Source: a virus
Lineage: Duplodnaviria > Heunggongvirae > Uroviricota > Caudoviricetes
Direction: 5' to 3' (one strand)
IMG/VR virus record: IMGVR_UViG_2579778974_000005
DNA: 13,459 nt
The notes beneath the pieces were generated by a model. That model made no database searches and had not been told where the DNA came from. It saw only the letters and a program-made list of their open reading frames with translations. Below, in pieces: positions 1-8,900 of the stretch; the stretch's first letter is position 1, and each line of letters begins with the position of its first letter. The position numbers were made by a program, and so were the translations under genes.

Positions 1-279
1 ATGGCTGCGCTTGGGCAGTCAATCGGTGGTATATTCCCTTCTGATGAAATAGTCAAAGGCTCTATTAGCGGATATGTCTTCGAGCAATTTGAAATCGCCT
101 GTTACACCTCACTCTTAGCAGCAGCAAAAAATGCCGGTGATACAGCTTCAATTCCAACCATCGAAGCGATTTTAAATGAGGAAAAGCAAATGGCCGACTG
201 GCTGATTCAGCATATTCCGCAAACAACTGAGAAATTTTTAATTCGCTCTGAAACTGATGGCGTAGAAGCGAAGAAATAA
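1..279 (+). CDS. yciE: 3' end (92 codons) of a ferritin-like DUF892 family protein (YciE/YciF-type); the 5' end lies outside the window
   Basis: Open frame running from the window edge to TAA at 277..279. The translation (..FEQFEIACYTSLLAAAKNAGD..ILNEEKQMADWL..) has the C-terminal pattern of DUF892 proteins such as E. coli YciF. Assignment to yciE rather than a paralogue is recollection, not verified. Followed by a hairpin plus T-run. Confidence 0.6.
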   Translation: MAALGQSIGGIFPSDEIVKGSISGYVFEQFEIACYTSLLAAAKNAGDTASIPTIEAILNEEKQMADWLIQHIPQTTEKFLIRSETDGVEAKK

Positions 280-303
280 TACCCTTTATACCATGTCCTT
301 ATT

Positions 304-330
304 GACCCCGTATATTACGGGGTCGTTTTT
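304..330 (+). terminator. Rho-independent terminator of the yciE-like gene
   Basis: Inverted repeat GACCCCG (304..310) / CGGGGTC (318..324) with a 7-nt loop, followed directly by GTTTTT (325..330), 25 nt after the stop codon. Confidence 0.6.
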
Positions 331-767
331 GTGCGGAATTAAAAACGATATCCTGCTGAGAACATAAACACCCACGGATCGAGGCGTACGCTATCGTGTT
401 GCTGTGCACCGCCCAGTTTATAATTGGCGGTGGTATCGATATCCATGTACCACACTGGTAGGTTTCAAAAAACACAATAACCAATTGTATTTGAAGCAAA
501 AAACAAGACTTTGAGATGTTTTGTTGTACCTTTTTTTTATGTTTTTAACTGTCTGATTTTATTGAAATCTTTTTTAGTTTTGCAGAAGGAATTTTTTACT
601 TGATTGTAACTTTTTCGTTTTTTTGGGGCTAATTGACGCGCAATGCTGGGCGGGGAGCGCACAGCCAAAAAAACCGAAATTGACCGCTAATTACTGCCAA
701 TCATCATCGCTCTGATTGAGCGTAAATCATTCAGGTTATTCAGTTCTTCCTTCTGCTCTCGCTGACG

Positions 768-1378: not shown

Positions 1379-2047
1379 ATGGTGAAATTAATGAAAAAAA
1401 ACACAGATGATGGGGCTAAAATTTACACACCACTTACCCTAAAGCTTTATGACTGGTGGGTTTTGGGAGTATCAAATTGGCTTGCATGGGGATGTCCTAC
1501 AAAGGAACACCTTCTTCCACACTTTCTGGAACATTTAGGTAACAACCATCTGGATATTGGTGTTGGAACTGGGTTTTACCTTACTCACGTACCTGAGAGT
1601 AGTCTGATATCTTTAATGGATTTGAACGAAGCTAGCCTGAACGCGGCATCTACAAGGGCTGGGGAATCAAAAATTAAACATAAAATTAGCCATGATGTTT
1701 TTGAACCTTATCCCGCGGCGTTACATGGTCAATTTGATTCCATTTCCATGTTTTACCTTCTTCACTGCCTGCCTGGAAATATAACTACAAAAAGCTGTGT
1801 AATACGCAATGCGGCGCAGGCCTTAACTGACGATGGAACTCTATACGGAGCCACAATTCTTGGCGATGGAGTTGTGCACAATAGCTTCGGTCAAAAACTG
1901 ATGCGCATTTACAATCAGAAAGGCATCTTTTCAAACACAAAAGATTCCGAAGAAGGCTTAACACATATACTCTCAGAGCATTTCGAGAATGTTAAAACCA
2001 AGGTTCAAGGTACTGTAGTAATGTTTTCCGCTTCAGGGAAAAAATAG
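1379..2047 (+). CDS. Class I SAM-dependent methyltransferase (222 aa; possible alternative start at ATG 1391)
   Basis: Complete ORF with the glycine-rich SAM-binding motif I DIGVGTGFY, preceded by a YDWW segment as in small Rossmann-fold methyltransferases. Visibly more AT-rich than the flanking tail genes. Opposite orientation to the flanking tfa fragments; I recall the same arrangement in E. coli K-12 prophage DLP12 (tfaD-ybcY-tfaX) but did not verify homology. Confidence 0.8.
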   Translation: MVKLMKKNTDDGAKIYTPLTLKLYDWWVLGVSNWLAWGCPTKEHLLPHFLEHLGNNHLDIGVGTGFYLTHVPESSLISLMDLNEASLNAASTRAGESKIKHKISHDVFEPYPAALHGQFDSISMFYLLHCLPGNITTKSCVIRNAAQALTDDGTLYGATILGDGVVHNSFGQKLMRIYNQKGIFSNTKDSEEGLTHILSEHFENVKTKVQGTVVMFSASGKK

Positions 2048-2052
2048 CATCC

Positions 2053-2221
2053 AACCGCAGCACGTTCTTGCTTAAGACGTGCTGCGGCATAATCCCAATG
2101 ATTACTCCCTGACAGAGTTCGTAGGCCACTCAATATCAGGTGCAGTTGATGTATCAACACGGTTCAGCAACACCCGATACTTTTTCCAGGCTTCCAGCAA
2201 CGAGTTTTCTTCCTCCGTTGC
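2053..2221. repeat. Right copy of the ~170-bp diverged direct repeat (tfa 3' end plus downstream hairpin)
   Basis: Partner of 1003..1172. Confidence 0.8.
2055..2087. terminator. Perfect 11-bp stem hairpin at the convergence of the methyltransferase gene and the tfa remnant; possible bidirectional terminator
   Basis: CCGCAGCACGT (2055..2065), 11-nt loop, ACGTGCTGCGG (2077..2087). No strong U-tract on either strand. An imperfect copy sits at 1005..1038. Confidence 0.35.
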
Positions 2222-2230
2222 ATATACAGC
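2102..2230 (-). pseudogene. tfa 3' remnant (last ~42 codons of a tail fibre assembly gene, no ATG)
   Basis: Minus-strand stop-to-stop frame translates to [42 protein letters not shown], bounded upstream by an in-frame TGA at 2231..2233. Absent from the ORF track because it is too short. Confidence 0.5.
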
Positions 2231-2240
2231 TCACCTTTTT

Positions 2241-2534
2241 TCACCCACGATTAACCAACAGCCAGACCAGCAGACACGCCACCACCGGCACAGCAAAATC
2301 CATCAGGCTTGCCACATCCCATGCACGTGTATCAAAACCGCCCCACCACGGCATATTCATTCGCTTGCCATGCCCGAACATTTCGATCCAGCGATATTCT
2401 GCCTGGGTGTGTTCACGCGCAATGAAGAACGTACAACCGGCTATCGCCCCGTAAGCCCAGTTCCCGGTAAAAAGACCAATCAGTAGCTGCGCAGCCACAG
2501 CACAAAGCGCATGAAGGAAAGGTGTTATATCCAT
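2241..2534 (-). CDS. Small membrane protein (97 aa, two predicted hydrophobic helices), function unknown
   Basis: ATG at 2532..2534 with AGGAGG 5 nt upstream, 10 nt after the stop of the preceding gene. Hydrophobic stretches FLHALCAVAAQLLIGLF..AIAGCTFFIA and LMDFAVPVVACLLVWLLV. Confidence 0.6.
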   Translation of the reverse strand: MDITPFLHALCAVAAQLLIGLFTGNWAYGAIAGCTFFIAREHTQAEYRWIEMFGHGKRMNMPWWGGFDTRAWDVASLMDFAVPVVACLLVWLLVNRG

Positions 2535-2544
2535 TACTCCTCCT

Positions 2545-3249
2545 TTATCCGATATCGCTTCGGGAAACGGATAACAACTTTAATTCTGACTCAAGTTCAT
2601 CAACTCTTTCAGTCAGCTTCTGGATATGGTGAATCAGTGGAACAACCAGACGTTCGTACATTACACCTTCGGCAACAAGGCCATTGCTGGAAATAGCTTC
2701 AGGAGCATCATCTTCGTTAGCTGGTCGCCAGTGTACAAACTGAGGGGCAATTTCTCCTACTTCCTCGGCAATCAATCCGTAGAATCCCCAGTCACGCCTG
2801 TCATTTTCGCATTGCGACCTGTACCACACAGGGCGCATCCTGAAAATGAGATCGGCGTGCTCTGAATCTATCGTCTCTACTGAATGTTTATAGCGAATAG
2901 ACGATGTTGACCGCAGTACAGACGAAATTGCAGGGTCAGGATTAAGATAAAGGTTTGCCGCCGCTGTAGTCGTGCCCAATCCCCACATATAAAACGCTTC
3001 ACGGCCAGTCAACGGGTAAAAATCTCCACCATAACGACCGCTTTCCAGATCGTTCACTTCCAGTTTGTTTTTCAGCTTATTATCAACTTCAGTTTTTGTG
3101 TATCTGGTGCTGATATCCTGCTTTGCACTGGTCATATCAGTCTGAAGCGTTGATACTTTTCCGTTAATTGAGGAAATATCTTCCTTAGTTTTACTGACAT
3201 CTCCCTTTAGCGTGGTGATATCTCCTGGAATTACTGTCGATGTAGCCAT
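2545..3249 (-). CDS. Short fibre-like protein: N-terminal coiled-coil plus C-terminal intramolecular chaperone (peptidase S74-type) domain (234 aa)
   Basis: ATG at 3247..3249 with GAGGGAG upstream. C-terminal region SSIRYKHSVETID..LIFRMRPVWY..WGFYGLIAEEVGEIAPQFV..GLVAEGVMYERLVVPLIHHIQKLTERVDELESELK fits the pattern of the tail fibre / endosialidase intramolecular chaperone domain as I recall it. Confidence 0.65.
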   Translation of the reverse strand: MATSTVIPGDITTLKGDVSKTKEDISSINGKVSTLQTDMTSAKQDISTRYTKTEVDNKLKNKLEVNDLESGRYGGDFYPLTGREAFYMWGLGTTTAAANLYLNPDPAISSVLRSTSSIRYKHSVETIDSEHADLIFRMRPVWYRSQCENDRRDWGFYGLIAEEVGEIAPQFVHWRPANEDDAPEAISSNGLVAEGVMYERLVVPLIHHIQKLTERVDELESELKLLSVSRSDIG

Positions 3250-3258
3250 TTGTCTCCC

Positions 3259-3540
3259 TCACATCCAGCCACGAAGTTGATGCTCAACAACAACCGCGTA
3301 TTTATCGAATATTGACGATTTTTTTACATCATTAATGATGCGCACGTTTACAAAATATCCGTCTTCCTTAACACATACCGGTTCGCCATCTTCAGTCAGT
3401 TCTCCGGTTTCTTTGTACACGTTACCTATCACGTCAATAAGAATATCATCCTGCATCGACTCGTCATCATAATAGCCAATACTCTCCATAAAGGCCGAAA
3501 AGTCGGCCCTGTCTGCAAATTTGAGTGTTAAATCTTTCAT
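3259..3540 (-). CDS. Small acidic hypothetical protein (93 aa); possible fibre chaperone or accessory factor
   Basis: ATG at 3538..3540 overlaps the stf stop (ATGA overlap), with a GGGGAGAG SD inside the stf 3' end. No recognisable family. Confidence 0.55.
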   Translation of the reverse strand: MKDLTLKFADRADFSAFMESIGYYDDESMQDDILIDVIGNVYKETGELTEDGEPVCVKEDGYFVNVRIINDVKKSSIFDKYAVVVEHQLRGWM

Positions 3541-5882
3541 TTAATACTCTCCCCCATTTGCGCATCAGTTAATTCTTTATGCCAGATACGCAGATTACGG
3601 ATATGACCAAAAAGATGATACTCCCCATTAGTGCCCTGCCCTCCAATTCGCAATACTGCCCGTGGAACAATTGAAGTCCATGTTGTTTTTGCCGCAACAG
3701 ATAATTCACCATTACATACGGCCTGAACATCTCCATCAGCGCCACAACGGAAGCCTGAAATGATTTTCCTCTGGGTTGTTGCCACATATTTATTACACCC
3801 TCCCATAGAAATAAAAGGAGAACCGGCATCAGAGAAATTATTACCACGGAATCCATGCGTGAACAGACCATTTTCCTGATAATCTTTAACATTAAAGATT
3901 AATGGTGATTTGCTGGGAGGGATATCCCAGTTTTTATTAACTTCAACAAGAGCACTGAATGGTAATCGGTGAATATTGTTTCTTACAGGTATTGTCACCA
4001 TGTCGCTGGAGCGAGTGCCAGGAGCCCCTTCAGTAATGATAAATGACGTCCTGTACGACCCAATCTCCGCCTGAGGCATCGCAATATCTAACGTAGAGCC
4101 ATTGGGGATAATACTGATTCCAGGCATCGCCAGGATTTCAAATCTTGAGCTGATTATCATTTCCGCATCTGCAAAAAGAGTGGCGGTAAACAACCACCAT
4201 TCACCGACTCTTTCTGCCGTCACCGTCACATTATTTCCATGAACAACATTTCCCGTAACAGGATCCAGAACTGCATCTGAATGAAAAACAAACGCACCAT
4301 TATCAGACATTTTTCCGAACCTTGCACGACACCGGGAATTATCACTTTTCGTCAGACACGATATCGTCGTATAAGAACCTGCCGGGCAGGTGTAAGCATC
4401 ATTCGTGTTTACAGCAATTGCCTGATATCCTTGTGCTGTCGGATTTTCATTAATAACAGTTATCCTTCCATAGTTAAACCCCTTATCACTGTCGAACGAC
4501 TCAACAGACACACTACCCGTGTTATTCCATGCTTCTGGTGTATTTGAATTTCTGAAATAGTTTGTTCTCTGTCCTTCAATCAGCAAACCTTCTCGTTCAA
4601 ATCGCGGTTCGTCAACTTCAGCAACGGTTAATACACCTGATTTATTAATGTATGTTGCACCTGATGCGCGTTTGAAGCTAACAACCTTATCGGATGGCAT
4701 TTTAATAACATCATCACCTACGGTTATTTGCTTATAACCAGGCGAAAAGCCAGCAAGCATATCCAGTGAATCGTTAAACGGTATCCACACATCAGGCAGT
4801 GGCTGTAAGACATATTTATACGGCTCTGCTGCCTGGCTTGCATACTCTCTGGCTGCATCCTCACTTGCTTTAGCTGCTGTCTGGCTTGCTGCCGATGCTT
4901 GCGCCGAGTTCGCCGCTGCAGTCTCGCTTGTCTTTGCATTGGTTTCACTGGTTTTTGCAGCTTTTTGACTGTTTGCTGATGCAGTGGCAGAAGCAGCCGC
5001 CGCACTTGCAGAACCAGCTGCAGCACTCTCGCTTTCGGCTGCTGCATCCTGACTGCTTTTCGCCGCAGTTTCGCTGGCTTTGGCATTTGTTTCGCTGGTC
5101 TTCGCTGCCGTCTGGCTGGACTTTGCGTTAGTTTCGCTCGTCTTCGCTGCTTTCTGGCTGTTAGCCGCAGCAGTTGCTGATCCAGCTGCTGCAGTCGCAG
5201 AACCGGCTGCCGCGCTCTCGCTTTCGGCTGCTGCATTCTGGCTATTTTTCGCCGCAGTTTCACTGGCTTTGGCATTCGTTTCGCTGGTTTTCGCTGCCGT
5301 CTGGCTGGACTTTGCGTTGGTTTCGCTCGTCTTTGCGGCTGTCTCGCTGTTTTTCGCGTTGGTTTCTGATTTTTTGGCTGCTGTCGCGGAGTTTGCCGAT
5401 GCAGTCTGCGAGGACGCTGCCGCCTGTGCGCTGTTAGCTGCATTCGTTTCTGAGGTTTTCGCCGCGTTCTTCGATGATGCCGCTGCAGTTTCGGATTTCT
5501 TTGCCGCCGCTGCGCTCTGAGAGGCGGCTTCGGCGTTGCGTGCCGCTTCTTCCACCATTGCCTCAAAACGACGCAATGCCTCCGGCATGACATCATCTTC
5601 CGTCATGGCACCGAGAAAATCATTCAGCGTACCTGGTCTGGAACCTTCATAGACGGTAATGGTTCCGGCATGTGAAGGCGGAAAACCTTCAACCAGCAGG
5701 GTGACGCTGTACTGGCCATGCTCAACATCCATGCTGTAACGCCCGGCTTCATCCGGATTTTCAGAGGCCACCGTGTTCACCAGTACCGTGGTGCTGTTAC
5801 GCTTTGCCTTCAGTTGAATAGTGCAGTTCTGTATTGGTTTTCCCGCACCATCTTTCAGCACACCTGAAATCTGTACTGCCAT
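3537..5882 (-). CDS. stf: Side tail fibre protein (Stf-like; 781 aa from the ATG at 5880..5882)
   Basis: N-terminus MAVQISGVLKDGAGKPIQNCTIQLKA..GRYSMDVE..FPPSHAGTITVYE matches the lambda Stf N-terminal domain from memory. It is followed by a long Ala/Ser/Thr-rich repetitive shaft and a distinct C-terminal region ending in a LamG/concanavalin-like motif (..RIGGQGTNGEYHLFGHIRNLRIWHKELTDAQM). GGAG SD before the ATG; the track's upstream GTG start is less likely. Confidence 0.85.
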   Translation of the reverse strand: MAVQISGVLKDGAGKPIQNCTIQLKAKRNSTTVLVNTVASENPDEAGRYSMDVEHGQYSVTLLVEGFPPSHAGTITVYEGSRPGTLNDFLGAMTEDDVMPEALRRFEAMVEEAARNAEAASQSAAAAKKSETAAASSKNAAKTSETNAANSAQAAASSQTASANSATAAKKSETNAKNSETAAKTSETNAKSSQTAAKTSETNAKASETAAKNSQNAAAESESAAAGSATAAAGSATAAANSQKAAKTSETNAKSSQTAAKTSETNAKASETAAKSSQDAAAESESAAAGSASAAAASATASANSQKAAKTSETNAKTSETAAANSAQASAASQTAAKASEDAAREYASQAAEPYKYVLQPLPDVWIPFNDSLDMLAGFSPGYKQITVGDDVIKMPSDKVVSFKRASGATYINKSGVLTVAEVDEPRFEREGLLIEGQRTNYFRNSNTPEAWNNTGSVSVESFDSDKGFNYGRITVINENPTAQGYQAIAVNTNDAYTCPAGSYTTISCLTKSDNSRCRARFGKMSDNGAFVFHSDAVLDPVTGNVVHGNNVTVTAERVGEWWLFTATLFADAEMIISSRFEILAMPGISIIPNGSTLDIAMPQAEIGSYRTSFIITEGAPGTRSSDMVTIPVRNNIHRLPFSALVEVNKNWDIPPSKSPLIFNVKDYQENGLFTHGFRGNNFSDAGSPFISMGGCNKYVATTQRKIISGFRCGADGDVQAVCNGELSVAAKTTWTSIVPRAVLRIGGQGTNGEYHLFGHIRNLRIWHKELTDAQMGESIK
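4850..5430. repeat. Tandem coding repeats (~189-bp unit, about 2.5-3 copies) in the stf shaft
   Basis: Near-identical blocks starting near 5041 and 5230, with a related copy near 4860-5040. Protein repeat ..KAAKTSETNAKSSQTAAKTSETNAKASETAAK.S..AAAESESAAAGSA.. seen twice. Confidence 0.8.
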
Positions 5883-5893
5883 ATTCACTCCAC

Positions 5894-5921
5894 AAATAAA
5901 AAAGGCGCCATTTCTGGCGCC
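5894..5921 (-). terminator. Rho-independent terminator downstream of J, immediately upstream of the stf ribosome-binding site
   Basis: On the minus strand: GGCGCCA-GAAA-TGGCGCC stem-loop (plus 5904..5921) followed by TTTTTTATTT (plus 5894..5903), about 20 nt after the J stop. Confidence 0.6.
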
Positions 5922-5940
5922 CGTATCTGGGTTATAAAAT

Positions 5941-8900
5941 TCAGCTAATCATGATGCCTGCAGTGGCTTTCTTCATCACCACAACCAGCAAATCGCTGAT
6001 ACTTGCTGTGGGATACCAGCCATTTACCAGCCATGCCGATACAGAAAATTCCAGTGTCATTACACCACTGCCTGCAGGCATATCAATAACACCCGTATAT
6101 ATCAGCGTATTATCCAGAGCCGTTCGGTTATAAATTTCAGCACCGTTTTTTCGTACTATCAGACGGCATGAGGAGTAGATATCAGTATGATCTTGCTCAT
6201 GTTTAGCGCCACTGAATGCCACCGCCGGAATAACAATTTGCCGGTCAAACGGCTGATCGTCATAAACCCTGACGGTAATGGTCCCTGATGGCCACCGCTC
6301 CGGTGCACGGGAGTCCCGGGGGAAAGCTTTGCCCACTGTTTTAACGAGATCGCCTTCAATCTGGTTCGCGGACAGTTTTCCCAGAACCCGGCAGTTCTCG
6401 TTAATCGTGACGTTGTTGAGCGTCCCGGAGTTCGCATTCACGTTACCGCTAATATCGGCATTTTTCGCCGTCAGCCGCCCGTCCGGTGTCAGGGAAAATG
6501 CCGGAGGATTACCGCCGCTGGTAATGGTGGGAGCCGTCAGATATTTCAGGAACACTTCGTTCATGAATATCTGATCGCCCTGACCAACAAACATCGGCTT
6601 TGTGTTGCCATTCGCAGGATTAATCATCGCAATCCTGTCCGCCGCCAGCAGCACCTGACTCTGCATACCGTCAGGGGTATTCTCAATACCGGCACCAATA
6701 CCCGCGATATAAAGGCGTCCGTCCTGCATCTGCTGCAGCTTCACAGCCCACATGCTGTTCAGGTTATTATTTGTATCAACCTGAACCTTCTGTATCTGCT
6801 GGATTGCCGCACTCTGGTCTTCCAGTTTCTTATTGACGGTCTGCGTGATTTCATTACTGACATCCGTGATGGACGTTCTGATTTCCGCCAGGTCAGGCGC
6901 AAGCTGACCGTTATCAATCTGCGTCCACAACTCCTGAGCCAGATGGGTTTTCCCTATCTCTCCTTTGAAAAAATTCAGATAGCCGGATGCATCATCACTC
7001 GGCTGGCCAACAGCCTCCACGAATGCCGATTTGCCAACGGTGTTCACACTGCGGATGTAAAAATAATAATCATGGCCCGGTTTGATATTGATACTGGCGG
7101 CTATCCAGTACAGCGCCGTGCCAAGATAGCGTGCTGTGGTTTCAACCTGCCTGATATCCGCAATCCGCTTTTCCGAGAACCAGAACTCAAACTGTACCGT
7201 CGGATCATAAACCGCAAGATGCGGCGTGGCGGTTATCTGAAAATACCCCGGTGTCAGCTCAATCTGCGACGGCGCTGCCGGTGCGGCAATCCGGAACGAT
7301 ACCGACGCCGGCTCGCCCTGCTGCCCCCACGCATTTACTGCCCGGACTGTCAGCCTGTAGTTCCCCAGAGCCAGTTGTGTGAAGCGGTAAGTGGTTTCCG
7401 TCGTCCGGGCCGTGCTGACCAGTCGCTCACGGCCGTCATCCGCTGCCACGGTCAGGCGAAGCAGGAAGCTCACGCCCTTCACCACCTTCGGCGTGTCCCA
7501 GCGGGCCAGCACCTGGTATTCCCCGCTGTCTGCGGTGACTTCTGCGGTCAGGTGCTGCACCGCTGGCGGCGTGACACCATTTACCGTGCCGCTCTGGTCG
7601 CCGTCAAAGTGCGCCCCGTTATCCACGATGGCCTCTTTTTCCGGTACATGCTGCACGGCGGTGATGGCATACGTGCCGTCGTCGTTCTCACGGATACTCA
7701 CGCAGCGGAACAGGCGCTGGCGCAACGTCGGCAGCTTCAGCCCCCATACGCTGTATTCAGCAACGCCGTCAGGAACACGGCTCACTTTCACCTTCACGCC
7801 GTCGGTGACGGACTGAACCTCCACGCTGACCGGACTCCCCTGCCCGTCAACCAGGCTTATCAGCGTGGTGCCGGAAGATGGCAGCGTGATTTCACGGTCG
7901 AGCGTCAGCGTCCGGGTCTGGCTGTTTACCGCCAGCACGCGCCCGCCGGTGCGGATACCGGCATAGTCATCATCGCAGATTTCAATGACATCGCCCGGTA
8001 CATGGCGAAGCCCTTCGGCACCCACGCTGAAGTCCACGGTCTGCGTTTCCAGCAGCTCCGTTTTAATCAGCCACAGCCCGGCGCGGTGTGCCTGCCCCCG
8101 GCTGGTACAGCCAAAGGCATCCATCTTCGTGACGTTACGACCGTAACGGAGAATGGCCTGCGTATCTTCAACAAGCTCTGTCGCCGTCTCCCAGCCGTTG
8201 TCCGGGTCAATCCAGTTCACCTCAACGGCATTATGGCGGTCCTTCAGGGCGCTGAAGCTGTAGCGGAACGGCGCGCCATCATCCGGCATCACCACATTAC
8301 TGCGGTTATAGGTCCACACCTTATCTGATGGTCGGTCCTGCACGAACGTCAGCGTCTGCCCGTTCCATACCGGCATACAGCGCATCGCCGAGCAGAAATC
8401 ACTGAGCACATCCCACGCCTTACGCTGCGTGGTCAGGTAGGCATTACAGGTGATGCGCGGCTCCGTGCCGCCAAAACCGTCCGGCACTGACTGGTCGCAG
8501 TACTGGCCGATGACATACAGCGCCCATTTATCCACATCCGCCGCACCAAGACGTTTCCCCATGCCGTAGCGCGGGTGGGTCAGCATATCCCACAGACACC
8601 AGGCCGGGTTGTTGCTGTATGCCGGCTTAAACGTTCCGTCCCAGATACCGCTGTATTGCCGCGTCTGCGGGTTATAGTTCGACGGCACCTGCAGAATGCG
8701 CCCGCGAAGATGATAATTACGGCTCACCTGCTGGCTGCCGAACTGCTCCGAGTCCACCTGCACGCCGACCAGTGCCGTGTTCGGGTAGCACTGTTTCACA
8801 TCGATGATTTCGGTGTATGACGACCAGAGCGTTTTGTTCTGCAGCTGGTCTGTGGTGCTGTCCGGCGTCATCCTGCGCATCCGGATGTTGAACGGGCGCG

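Follow-up and report, generated by a model that had tools for sequence, protein, structure and literature searches.

Phage accessory genes such as cor, llp, gtr and oac lie next to receptor-binding genes, and the tailspike–integrase site of P22 and the G–FI site of P2 classically house conversion or exclusion cargo. Cor (phi80, N15, HK022 and mEp167) and Llp (T5) are lipoproteins that act on a single phage-matched outer-membrane receptor, FhuA. T4 Imm, P22 SieA and HK97 gp15 are small inner-membrane proteins, which are expressed early or from the prophage and belong to families of narrow distribution. In phage lambda, the morons lom and bor encode accessory membrane proteins in or next to the late operon, and lom illustrates that genes within late operons can be expressed in lysogens.

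The gene analyzed here occupies the same kind of place in a window of 13,459 nucleotides (the whole stretch of viral DNA under study, IMG/VR record IMGVR_UViG_2579778974_000005), which represents the tail end of an E. coli lambdoid prophage, adjoins yciE and an ompW remnant, and is 100% identical to E. coli MS6198. Its 97-residue product resembles Cor and Llp in being small, encoded beside receptor-binding genes and carried as non-essential cargo. In contrast to them, it has no lipobox, is predicted to be an integral three-helix inner-membrane protein, shows no sequence similarity to either, and stays the same whichever type of receptor-binding protein it accompanies. Imm, SieA and gp15 provide the most plausible functional analogy, by which the protein might act as a block at the cytoplasmic membrane, given that the structural model also describes a small inner-membrane protein. 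However, they share no sequence relation with it, and their mode of expression and narrow families differ from a broad family whose gene is wired into a late operon.

Two further comparisons concern genome position. The site of the homologues in phages phiHAP-1 and JEP4 matches that of the P2 Z/fun and P22/Sf6 tailspike–integrase cargo (gtrABC, oac). Known cargo at those sites consists of separately transcribed units, on the opposite strand in P22, whereas the family gene runs in the direction of the fibre or tailspike gene, with whose stop codon it overlaps. Like lom and bor, the 97-residue gene encodes an accessory membrane protein in a late operon, and its deviant G+C content and downstream hairpin are moron-like, but no promoter of its own was detected; Lom and Bor are moreover outer-membrane or lipoproteins with known virulence-related roles, unlike the protein described here.

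Class I holins are likewise about 100 residues long with three hydrophobic helices. This assignment was ruled out by the C-terminus (...LLVNRG, without a charged tail), the lack of a holin family match, and lysis genes that lie elsewhere, none being adjacent in the window; holins also differ in having no counterpart of the invariant loop described below. A Pfam search at E ≤ 10 returned no exclusion or holin family and a single sub-threshold PhoR match; Caudo_TAP and chaperone families in Pfam, PADLOC and NCBIfam at E ≤ 1, and PDB sequences yielded no match, and fold searches gave nothing informative. Resemblances to the WWD heme-handling motif and to colicin-immunity topology were considered and set aside for want of supporting evidence.

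The fibre module and its last intact gene

On the minus strand, the window carries, in order, the tape measure gene, M, L, K, I, J, a hairpin, the side tail fibre gene, and the genes for proteins of 93, 234 and 97 residues. The features of the module are:

5903..5922, minus strand: intrinsic-terminator-like hairpin with a T run, in the interval from J to the side tail fibre gene (terminator scan)
3537..5888, minus strand: side tail fibre of 783 residues, first gene of the module, with a phage_tail_N N-terminus and a PHROG 1419 C-terminal part
3259..3540, minus strand: acidic protein of 93 residues (PHROG 1361, no Pfam)
2545..3249, minus strand: tail-fibre-domain protein of 234 residues with a C-terminal Peptidase_S74 intramolecular chaperone domain
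2539..2544, minus strand: Shine–Dalgarno sequence AGGAGG, 4 nt upstream of the ATG, right after the upstream TAA
2241..2534, minus strand: predicted three-helix inner-membrane protein of 97 residues, PHROG 1443 family (open reading frame, profile, model and dN/dS)
2102..2221, minus strand: 3' end of a tail fibre assembly gene, left as a pseudogene remnant, downstream of the 97-residue gene
2039..2088, minus strand: hairpin (2054-2088) with a run of U 9 nt downstream, −28.5 kcal/mol, z = −4.3

The open reading frame at 2241-2534 is a real gene and not a chance reading frame. It starts with ATG and matches the profile of PHROG 1443, a family of unknown function, over its full length (E = 2.8e-58; residues 1-96 against positions 1-96 of 97). 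Homologues number 453 at E ≤ 0.001, and the family comprises 430 clusters at 50% identity, all of about 60-145 residues and none fused to another domain. Among 44 distinct 294-nt alleles from E. coli, the median dN/dS is 0.11. The reading frame, its length and the perfect AGGAGG given in the preliminary description were all borne out. Because the AGGAGG immediately succeeds the TAA of the 234-residue gene (2545-2547) and is separated from the ATG by 4 nt, the arrangement is operon-like, and the gene is probably translationally coupled to its upstream neighbor; the same layout is seen in phage 21 and in the Rac prophage of BL21. The G+C content of the gene is 52.7%, compared to 39-49% in its flanks. 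Searches of the literature by topic and by protein accession found no publication on the family.

The preliminary description had also placed the gene last in the fibre operon. No intact gene of the side-tail-fibre module follows it, but the assembly gene remnant intervenes before the terminator-like hairpin. This remnant is one copy of a direct repeat and likely marks a recombination joint. The hairpin at 2054-2088, which a simple terminator scan did not call, is a candidate terminator of the fibre operon. At the place equivalent to the hairpin that follows J, the phage 21 record annotates a terminator; antiterminated late transcription would pass this hairpin and reach the fibre module. A consensus scan of the minus strand between 1300 and 6000, which cannot prove absence, detected no sigma-70-like promoter. 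DNA common to the window and phage 21-type phages starts just 12 nt ahead of the ATG, and most of the phages have a start codon that adjoins the late gene before it or overlaps with that gene. In a P1-like element, a canonical terminator precedes the homologue. A terminator just upstream of the gene in prophages with a 346-residue upstream protein appeared plausible by eye and was rejected for lack of a clean fold (z = −1.8).

Several observations concern the neighboring genes. In lambdoid, P1-like and SSU5-like elements alike, each gene for a Laminin_G_3-type fibre has behind it the gene for the 93-residue acidic protein or for one of similar size (in locus L156 at 4994-5278 and 6601-6888); this uncharacterised protein is probably a dedicated partner or chaperone of LamG-type fibres. 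In other E. coli prophages, a 346-residue form takes the place of the 234-residue protein, and the two have in common the N-terminus MATSTVIP.D and the S74 intramolecular chaperone end. The 234-residue protein has the appearance of a second, short fibre, not of a gene fragment, and may branch from the main side fibre. The side tail fibre contains Ala/Ser/Thr-rich repeats, which between 4700 and 5600 of the window are long, Ala/Ser/Thr/Lys-rich variants of AAKTSETNAKSSQT. These repeats account for a high G+C content, an extreme AT skew and several long spurious open reading frames in other frames (e.g., 4724-5596 and 5080-5520).

At the other side of the gene, a direct repeat of about 170 nt (86-91% identity) occurs at 1003-1172 and 2053-2221 of the window and flanks a plus-strand gene for a class I SAM methyltransferase (1379-2047, PHROG 2132). 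Each copy comprises a hairpin and the 3' end of a tail fibre assembly gene (tfa), and the methyltransferase gene looks like a cassette inserted via recombination between tfa 3' ends. At the left end of the window (1-470), yciE is annotated as frameshifted in this strain and ompW is present only as a fragment at the prophage junction (L001, 6775-7465). The same trp–yciE–ompW site in Klebsiella-type contigs (L159-L162) holds a different siphovirus, which also has a PHROG 1443 family member.

Predicted structure and conserved residues

An AlphaFold2 model based on a 32-sequence alignment (pLDDT 94.6) predicts three helices, at residues 4-23, 26-53 and 74-96, and not the two proposed in the preliminary description. 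The hydrophobic stretch 5-39 forms a tight hairpin around G24-N25 in the model. TMHMM, as quoted in the GenBank record of phage 21, counts two transmembrane segments with both termini inside (N-in/C-in). Among 231 aligned, mostly phage-borne members, the conserved loop contains 5.4 K/R compared to about 0.6 at each end, a distribution that would favor a cytoplasmic loop by the positive-inside rule. Chromosomal relatives carry K/R-rich TM1–TM2 turns and C-terminal tails, indicative of the opposite orientation. The evidence from K/R counts, chromosomal relatives and the quoted TMHMM result therefore points in different directions. An acidic residue is found in the N-terminus, MDITPFLHALC, which lacks a basic n-region; with L at −1 before C11, no lipobox is present, and C11 itself is not conserved among relatives.

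The transmembrane parts of the protein are variable, whereas the central loop (RE..QAEYRWI...R..MPWWGGFD.R.W) is near-invariant. From Escherichia to Aeromonas and Comamonas, residues 40-72 remain almost unchanged, as AREHTQAEYRWI..FG.GKR.NMPWWGGFD.R.W. The conserved core consists of H8, G29, R40-E41-x-x-Q44-A45-E46-Y47-R48, R58, P62, W72, D79 and P83. When conservation was scored in 118 representatives, one per 50%-identity cluster, R40 was conserved in 100%, E41 in 99%, E46 in 97%, Q44 in 96%, A45 and P83 in 95% each, W72 in 94%, H8 in 93%, R58 in 91% and D79 in 77%. In the three-helix bundle, the invariant residues are predicted to gather near one membrane face, an arrangement that resembles a site for binding or catalysis directed at something conserved. 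In a subgroup of 140-146 residues (P0147, P0195 and P0256), the conserved loop is enlarged by an inserted segment of about 45 residues (FGKPF...YAEWHY...GR...Y...L.G.R), which separates the QAEYRWI part from the MPWWGGF part.

Relatives in phages and on bacterial chromosomes

The family spans alpha-, beta- and gamma-proteobacteria and Desulfovibrio. In all temperate phage types examined, its members directly follow the receptor-binding module, a position that recurs in at least six unrelated phage lineages. The usual order in E. coli lambdoid prophages is a fibre of about 790 residues, the 93-residue protein, a 234- or 346-residue S74 protein, and the 97-residue protein; a shorter form, to which phage 21 belongs, has a fibre followed by proteins of 92 and 97 residues. 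In the P22-like phage JEP4, the tailspike gene is followed by the homologue, with an overlapping start, and then by the integrase gene; in P22 and Sf6, this site is occupied by gtrABC or oac. HP1-like myoviruses of Aeromonas and Leclercia have the homologue immediately after the fibre gene (some S74) in mid-operon, and it is also mid-operon in Aeromonas P22-like phages. In phiHAP-1, its neighbors are the fibre assembly gene on one side and the sheath gene FI on the other, a position corresponding to the Z/fun cargo site of P2, between G and FI. It likewise follows receptor-binding genes in a P1-like element, in the SSU5-like PhiR41_1, in a Klebsiella-type siphovirus and in a Comamonas prophage; it adjoins lydA/lydB in the P1-like element and holin-like genes in Comamonas.

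The adjacent fibres are unrelated to one another, comprising Laminin_G_3 types, Peptidase_S74 types and tailspikes; receptor specificity thus changes without a corresponding change in the protein. In phage 21 (1536-4985 of locus L002) and in the Nissle 1917 prophage (1460-4909 of locus L167), the sitABCD iron/manganese transporter operon converges directly on the 97-residue gene, indicating that the DNA immediately beyond the fibre module serves as a cargo site for fitness genes.

Large or virulent phages present a mixed picture. The 154-kb Cobetia phage Carin-5 has an intact homologue between two spike genes, and the Aeromonas jumbo phage PS1 has an intact, divergent copy adjoining its terminase gene. 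In HC6, a virulent T1-like phage, an intact 860-residue S74 tail fibre is followed by an unannotated, decayed family copy (4900-5260 of locus L164), in which the RE..QAEYRWI segment is deleted and a frameshift and a stop codon have arisen. HC6-like partial matches were found in four further records, the virulent T1-like ST1UNAM and ZCEC08 and the two 72-kb records PBM-2/3, in which the decayed copy likewise stands directly behind the intact fibre gene. A decayed copy behind an intact fibre in HC6-type phages implies that the fibre cassette came from a temperate phage. As judged from these sequences, the protein is dispensable for the neighboring fibre.

Bacterial carriage is extensive. The gene was found in 1,900 of 5,426 complete E. 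coli genomes, about one third, with a median of two and up to seven copies, and at 57 plasmid locations in the same set. Carriers include BL21(DE3), Nissle 1917, CFT073, UTI89 and 536; in BL21(DE3), the gene is intact within the defective Rac prophage, where the adjoining fibre gene is truncated. The copies in BL21(DE3) and Nissle 1917 bear the locus tags ECD_RS07175 and ACFX5S_RS13830, and WP_000355602 and WP_000355360 are examples of the protein's accessions.

A search of one genome per species for chromosomal copies without surrounding phage genes revealed orphans in several genera. In five Leclercia genomes, the orphan lies between dcp (Peptidase_M3) and a Meth_synt_2 gene together with a periplasmic-binding-protein gene, with urea-transporter-like genes adjacent. 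In Silvania and one Leclercia metagenome-assembled genome, it is near a porin gene and nifJ, which is also the neighborhood of the Rac end in E. coli B. In Aeromonas aquatica, A. media and A. taiwanensis, it adjoins pirin. No remnants of fibre, 93-residue protein, J or Tfa genes were detectable around the Leclercia, Silvania and Aeromonas orphans. The orphans are intact, and equal-length alleles, available from the same three genera, gave dN/dS values of 0.09-0.18 at dS 0.5-0.8. One Leclercia orphan has two promoter-like sites upstream and a canonical terminator downstream, and so looks, from these signals, like an autonomous transcription unit.

In sphingomonad-type alpha-proteobacteria, the homologue follows ligA (four loci), lies between ftsA and ftsZ (two) or near a PBP1A gene (two), and in further cases follows pnp, kdsA or amn. 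Because greedy calling of open reading frames in high-G+C loci produced antisense artefacts, only neighbors confirmed by Pfam or BLAST were used. The ligA, ftsA–ftsZ and PBP1A contexts may reflect a link with the cell envelope or division, or coincidence. In two Sphingomicrobium-like genomes, the ftsA–homologue–ftsZ locus includes an MFS transporter gene (L136, 5833-6309; L120, 5992-6300). Conserved relatives thus exist on chromosomes outside prophages, but their patchy distribution is not that of a housekeeping gene, the possibility against which the preliminary description had set its proposal.

The gene persists autonomously, and the retention of the gene by bacteria after prophage loss suggests that it probably benefits the carrier cell. 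The orphans, together with decay beside an intact fibre, further indicate that the protein needs neither fibres nor late phage transcription, acts on its own in that cell and is not a fibre assembly factor. Overall, the distribution appears to show a gene kept by cells rather than by strictly lytic phages, with Carin-5 and PS1 as exceptions.

Possible functions of the protein

Based on these comparisons, a tentatively preferred and by no means secure model is that the gene is carrier-cell cargo and that its product, a conversion or exclusion factor, acts on a conserved component of the host envelope, the pay-off being protection at the inner membrane. The gene would travel as an accessory with cassettes of receptor-binding proteins, and its post-fibre position would result from hitch-hiking, the fibre module being the part of phage genomes exchanged most often as well as a classical cargo site. 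The protein would form a three-helix inner-membrane bundle that presents H8, R40, E41, Q44, E46, R48, R58, W72 and D79 at one membrane face and would work alone in the bacterial cell. We infer that its target would be an envelope component or lipid conserved across Proteobacteria, and not a particular receptor or phage protein; the benefit could be that phages are excluded at the inner membrane, as by Imm, SieA or gp15, or that the envelope is altered in a general way.

The recurrent position, the orphans under purifying selection and the decay in virulent T1-like phages would all fit a benefit to the carrier cell. To this extent the earlier suggestion, made from gene position and size, is partly supported in the general sense of cargo useful to the carrier cell, although the block of the phage's own receptor that it envisaged is unsupported. 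Counted against carrier protection are the intact relatives in structural operons of the large, probably virulent phages Carin-5 and PS1, which fit a role in lytic growth, and the expression signals, namely the lack of a detected promoter by which a lysogen could express the gene, a start coupled to a late gene, and shared DNA that reaches only 12 nt upstream. Very strong purifying selection is, in addition, unusual for proteins that fight phages directly. A more far-reaching version of the carrier-cargo model must be considered doubtful: PHROG 1443 would be a new, widespread class of carrier protection, a cassette hitch-hiker domesticated as an orphan, whose RE..QAEYR/PWWGGFD site would block genome entry or remodel a universal envelope intermediate independently of the receptor.

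Alternatively, the protein could be a small membrane enzyme, or a lipid or glycan handler, that alters the envelope for reasons unrelated to exclusion and was captured from bacteria by phages. The modeled cluster of invariant H, R, E, Q and D residues with the Trp-rich PWWGGFD.R.W at one membrane face, the sphingomonad relatives beside ligA, ftsA–ftsZ and PBP1A genes, and the strong purifying selection would be consistent with such an activity. DgkA, with 121 residues, is a precedent for a very small membrane enzyme; even so, 97 residues would be very few, the sequence resembles no enzyme family or solved structure, and the chromosomal contexts are varied and the distribution patchy. This explanation is considered unlikely.

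Less likely again is a factor made together with the tail fibres late in infection, which might mediate late exclusion, influence membrane energetics or the timing of lysis, or spare progeny from debris. In its favor, the gene is co-oriented with late genes and often overlaps them, no promoter was detected for it in the window, and the mid-operon positions in HP1-like and Aeromonas P22-like phages, the proximity to lydA/lydB and holin-like genes, and the intact copies in Carin-5 and PS1 point the same way. A late role is difficult to reconcile with the decayed copies in T1-like virulent phages and with orphans long kept in chromosomes devoid of late phage transcription. Furthermore, the protein has no holin-like charged C-terminal tail, and in most contexts its gene is far from the lysis genes.

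A role in tail fibre maturation or assembly, for example, as a membrane-tethered chaperone, would explain the tight physical and probably translational linkage to fibre genes, yet it is improbable: the neighboring fibres are of structurally unrelated kinds, HC6 combines an intact fibre with a pseudogene of the family and Rac of BL21(DE3) an intact gene with a truncated fibre, orphans occur without fibre remnants nearby, and no Caudo_TAP or chaperone family is matched. Least probable of all is superinfection exclusion matched to the receptor, as with Cor and FhuA or Llp of T5, in which the protein would block the receptor or entry route of its own fibre. The gene does adjoin receptor-binding genes throughout the temperate phage types examined, but receptor-binding proteins unrelated to one another stand beside a protein with the same near-invariant loop, in hosts ranging from E. 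coli to Comamonas. Moreover, the protein is predicted to be integral to the inner membrane with neither lipobox nor signal peptide and is thus not a lipoprotein, and orphans persist without a cognate phage.

The PHROG 1443 family is present in about one third of complete E. coli genomes and in at least six phage architectures, yet it has no annotation, Pfam family or literature. If carrier protection is its function, the gene would be among the commonest prophage-borne protection genes in enterobacteria and would be relevant to the choice of phages for therapy. Should the protein turn out to be a late-infection factor or a small membrane enzyme instead, it would expose a conserved weak point of the host that is addressed by many phages.
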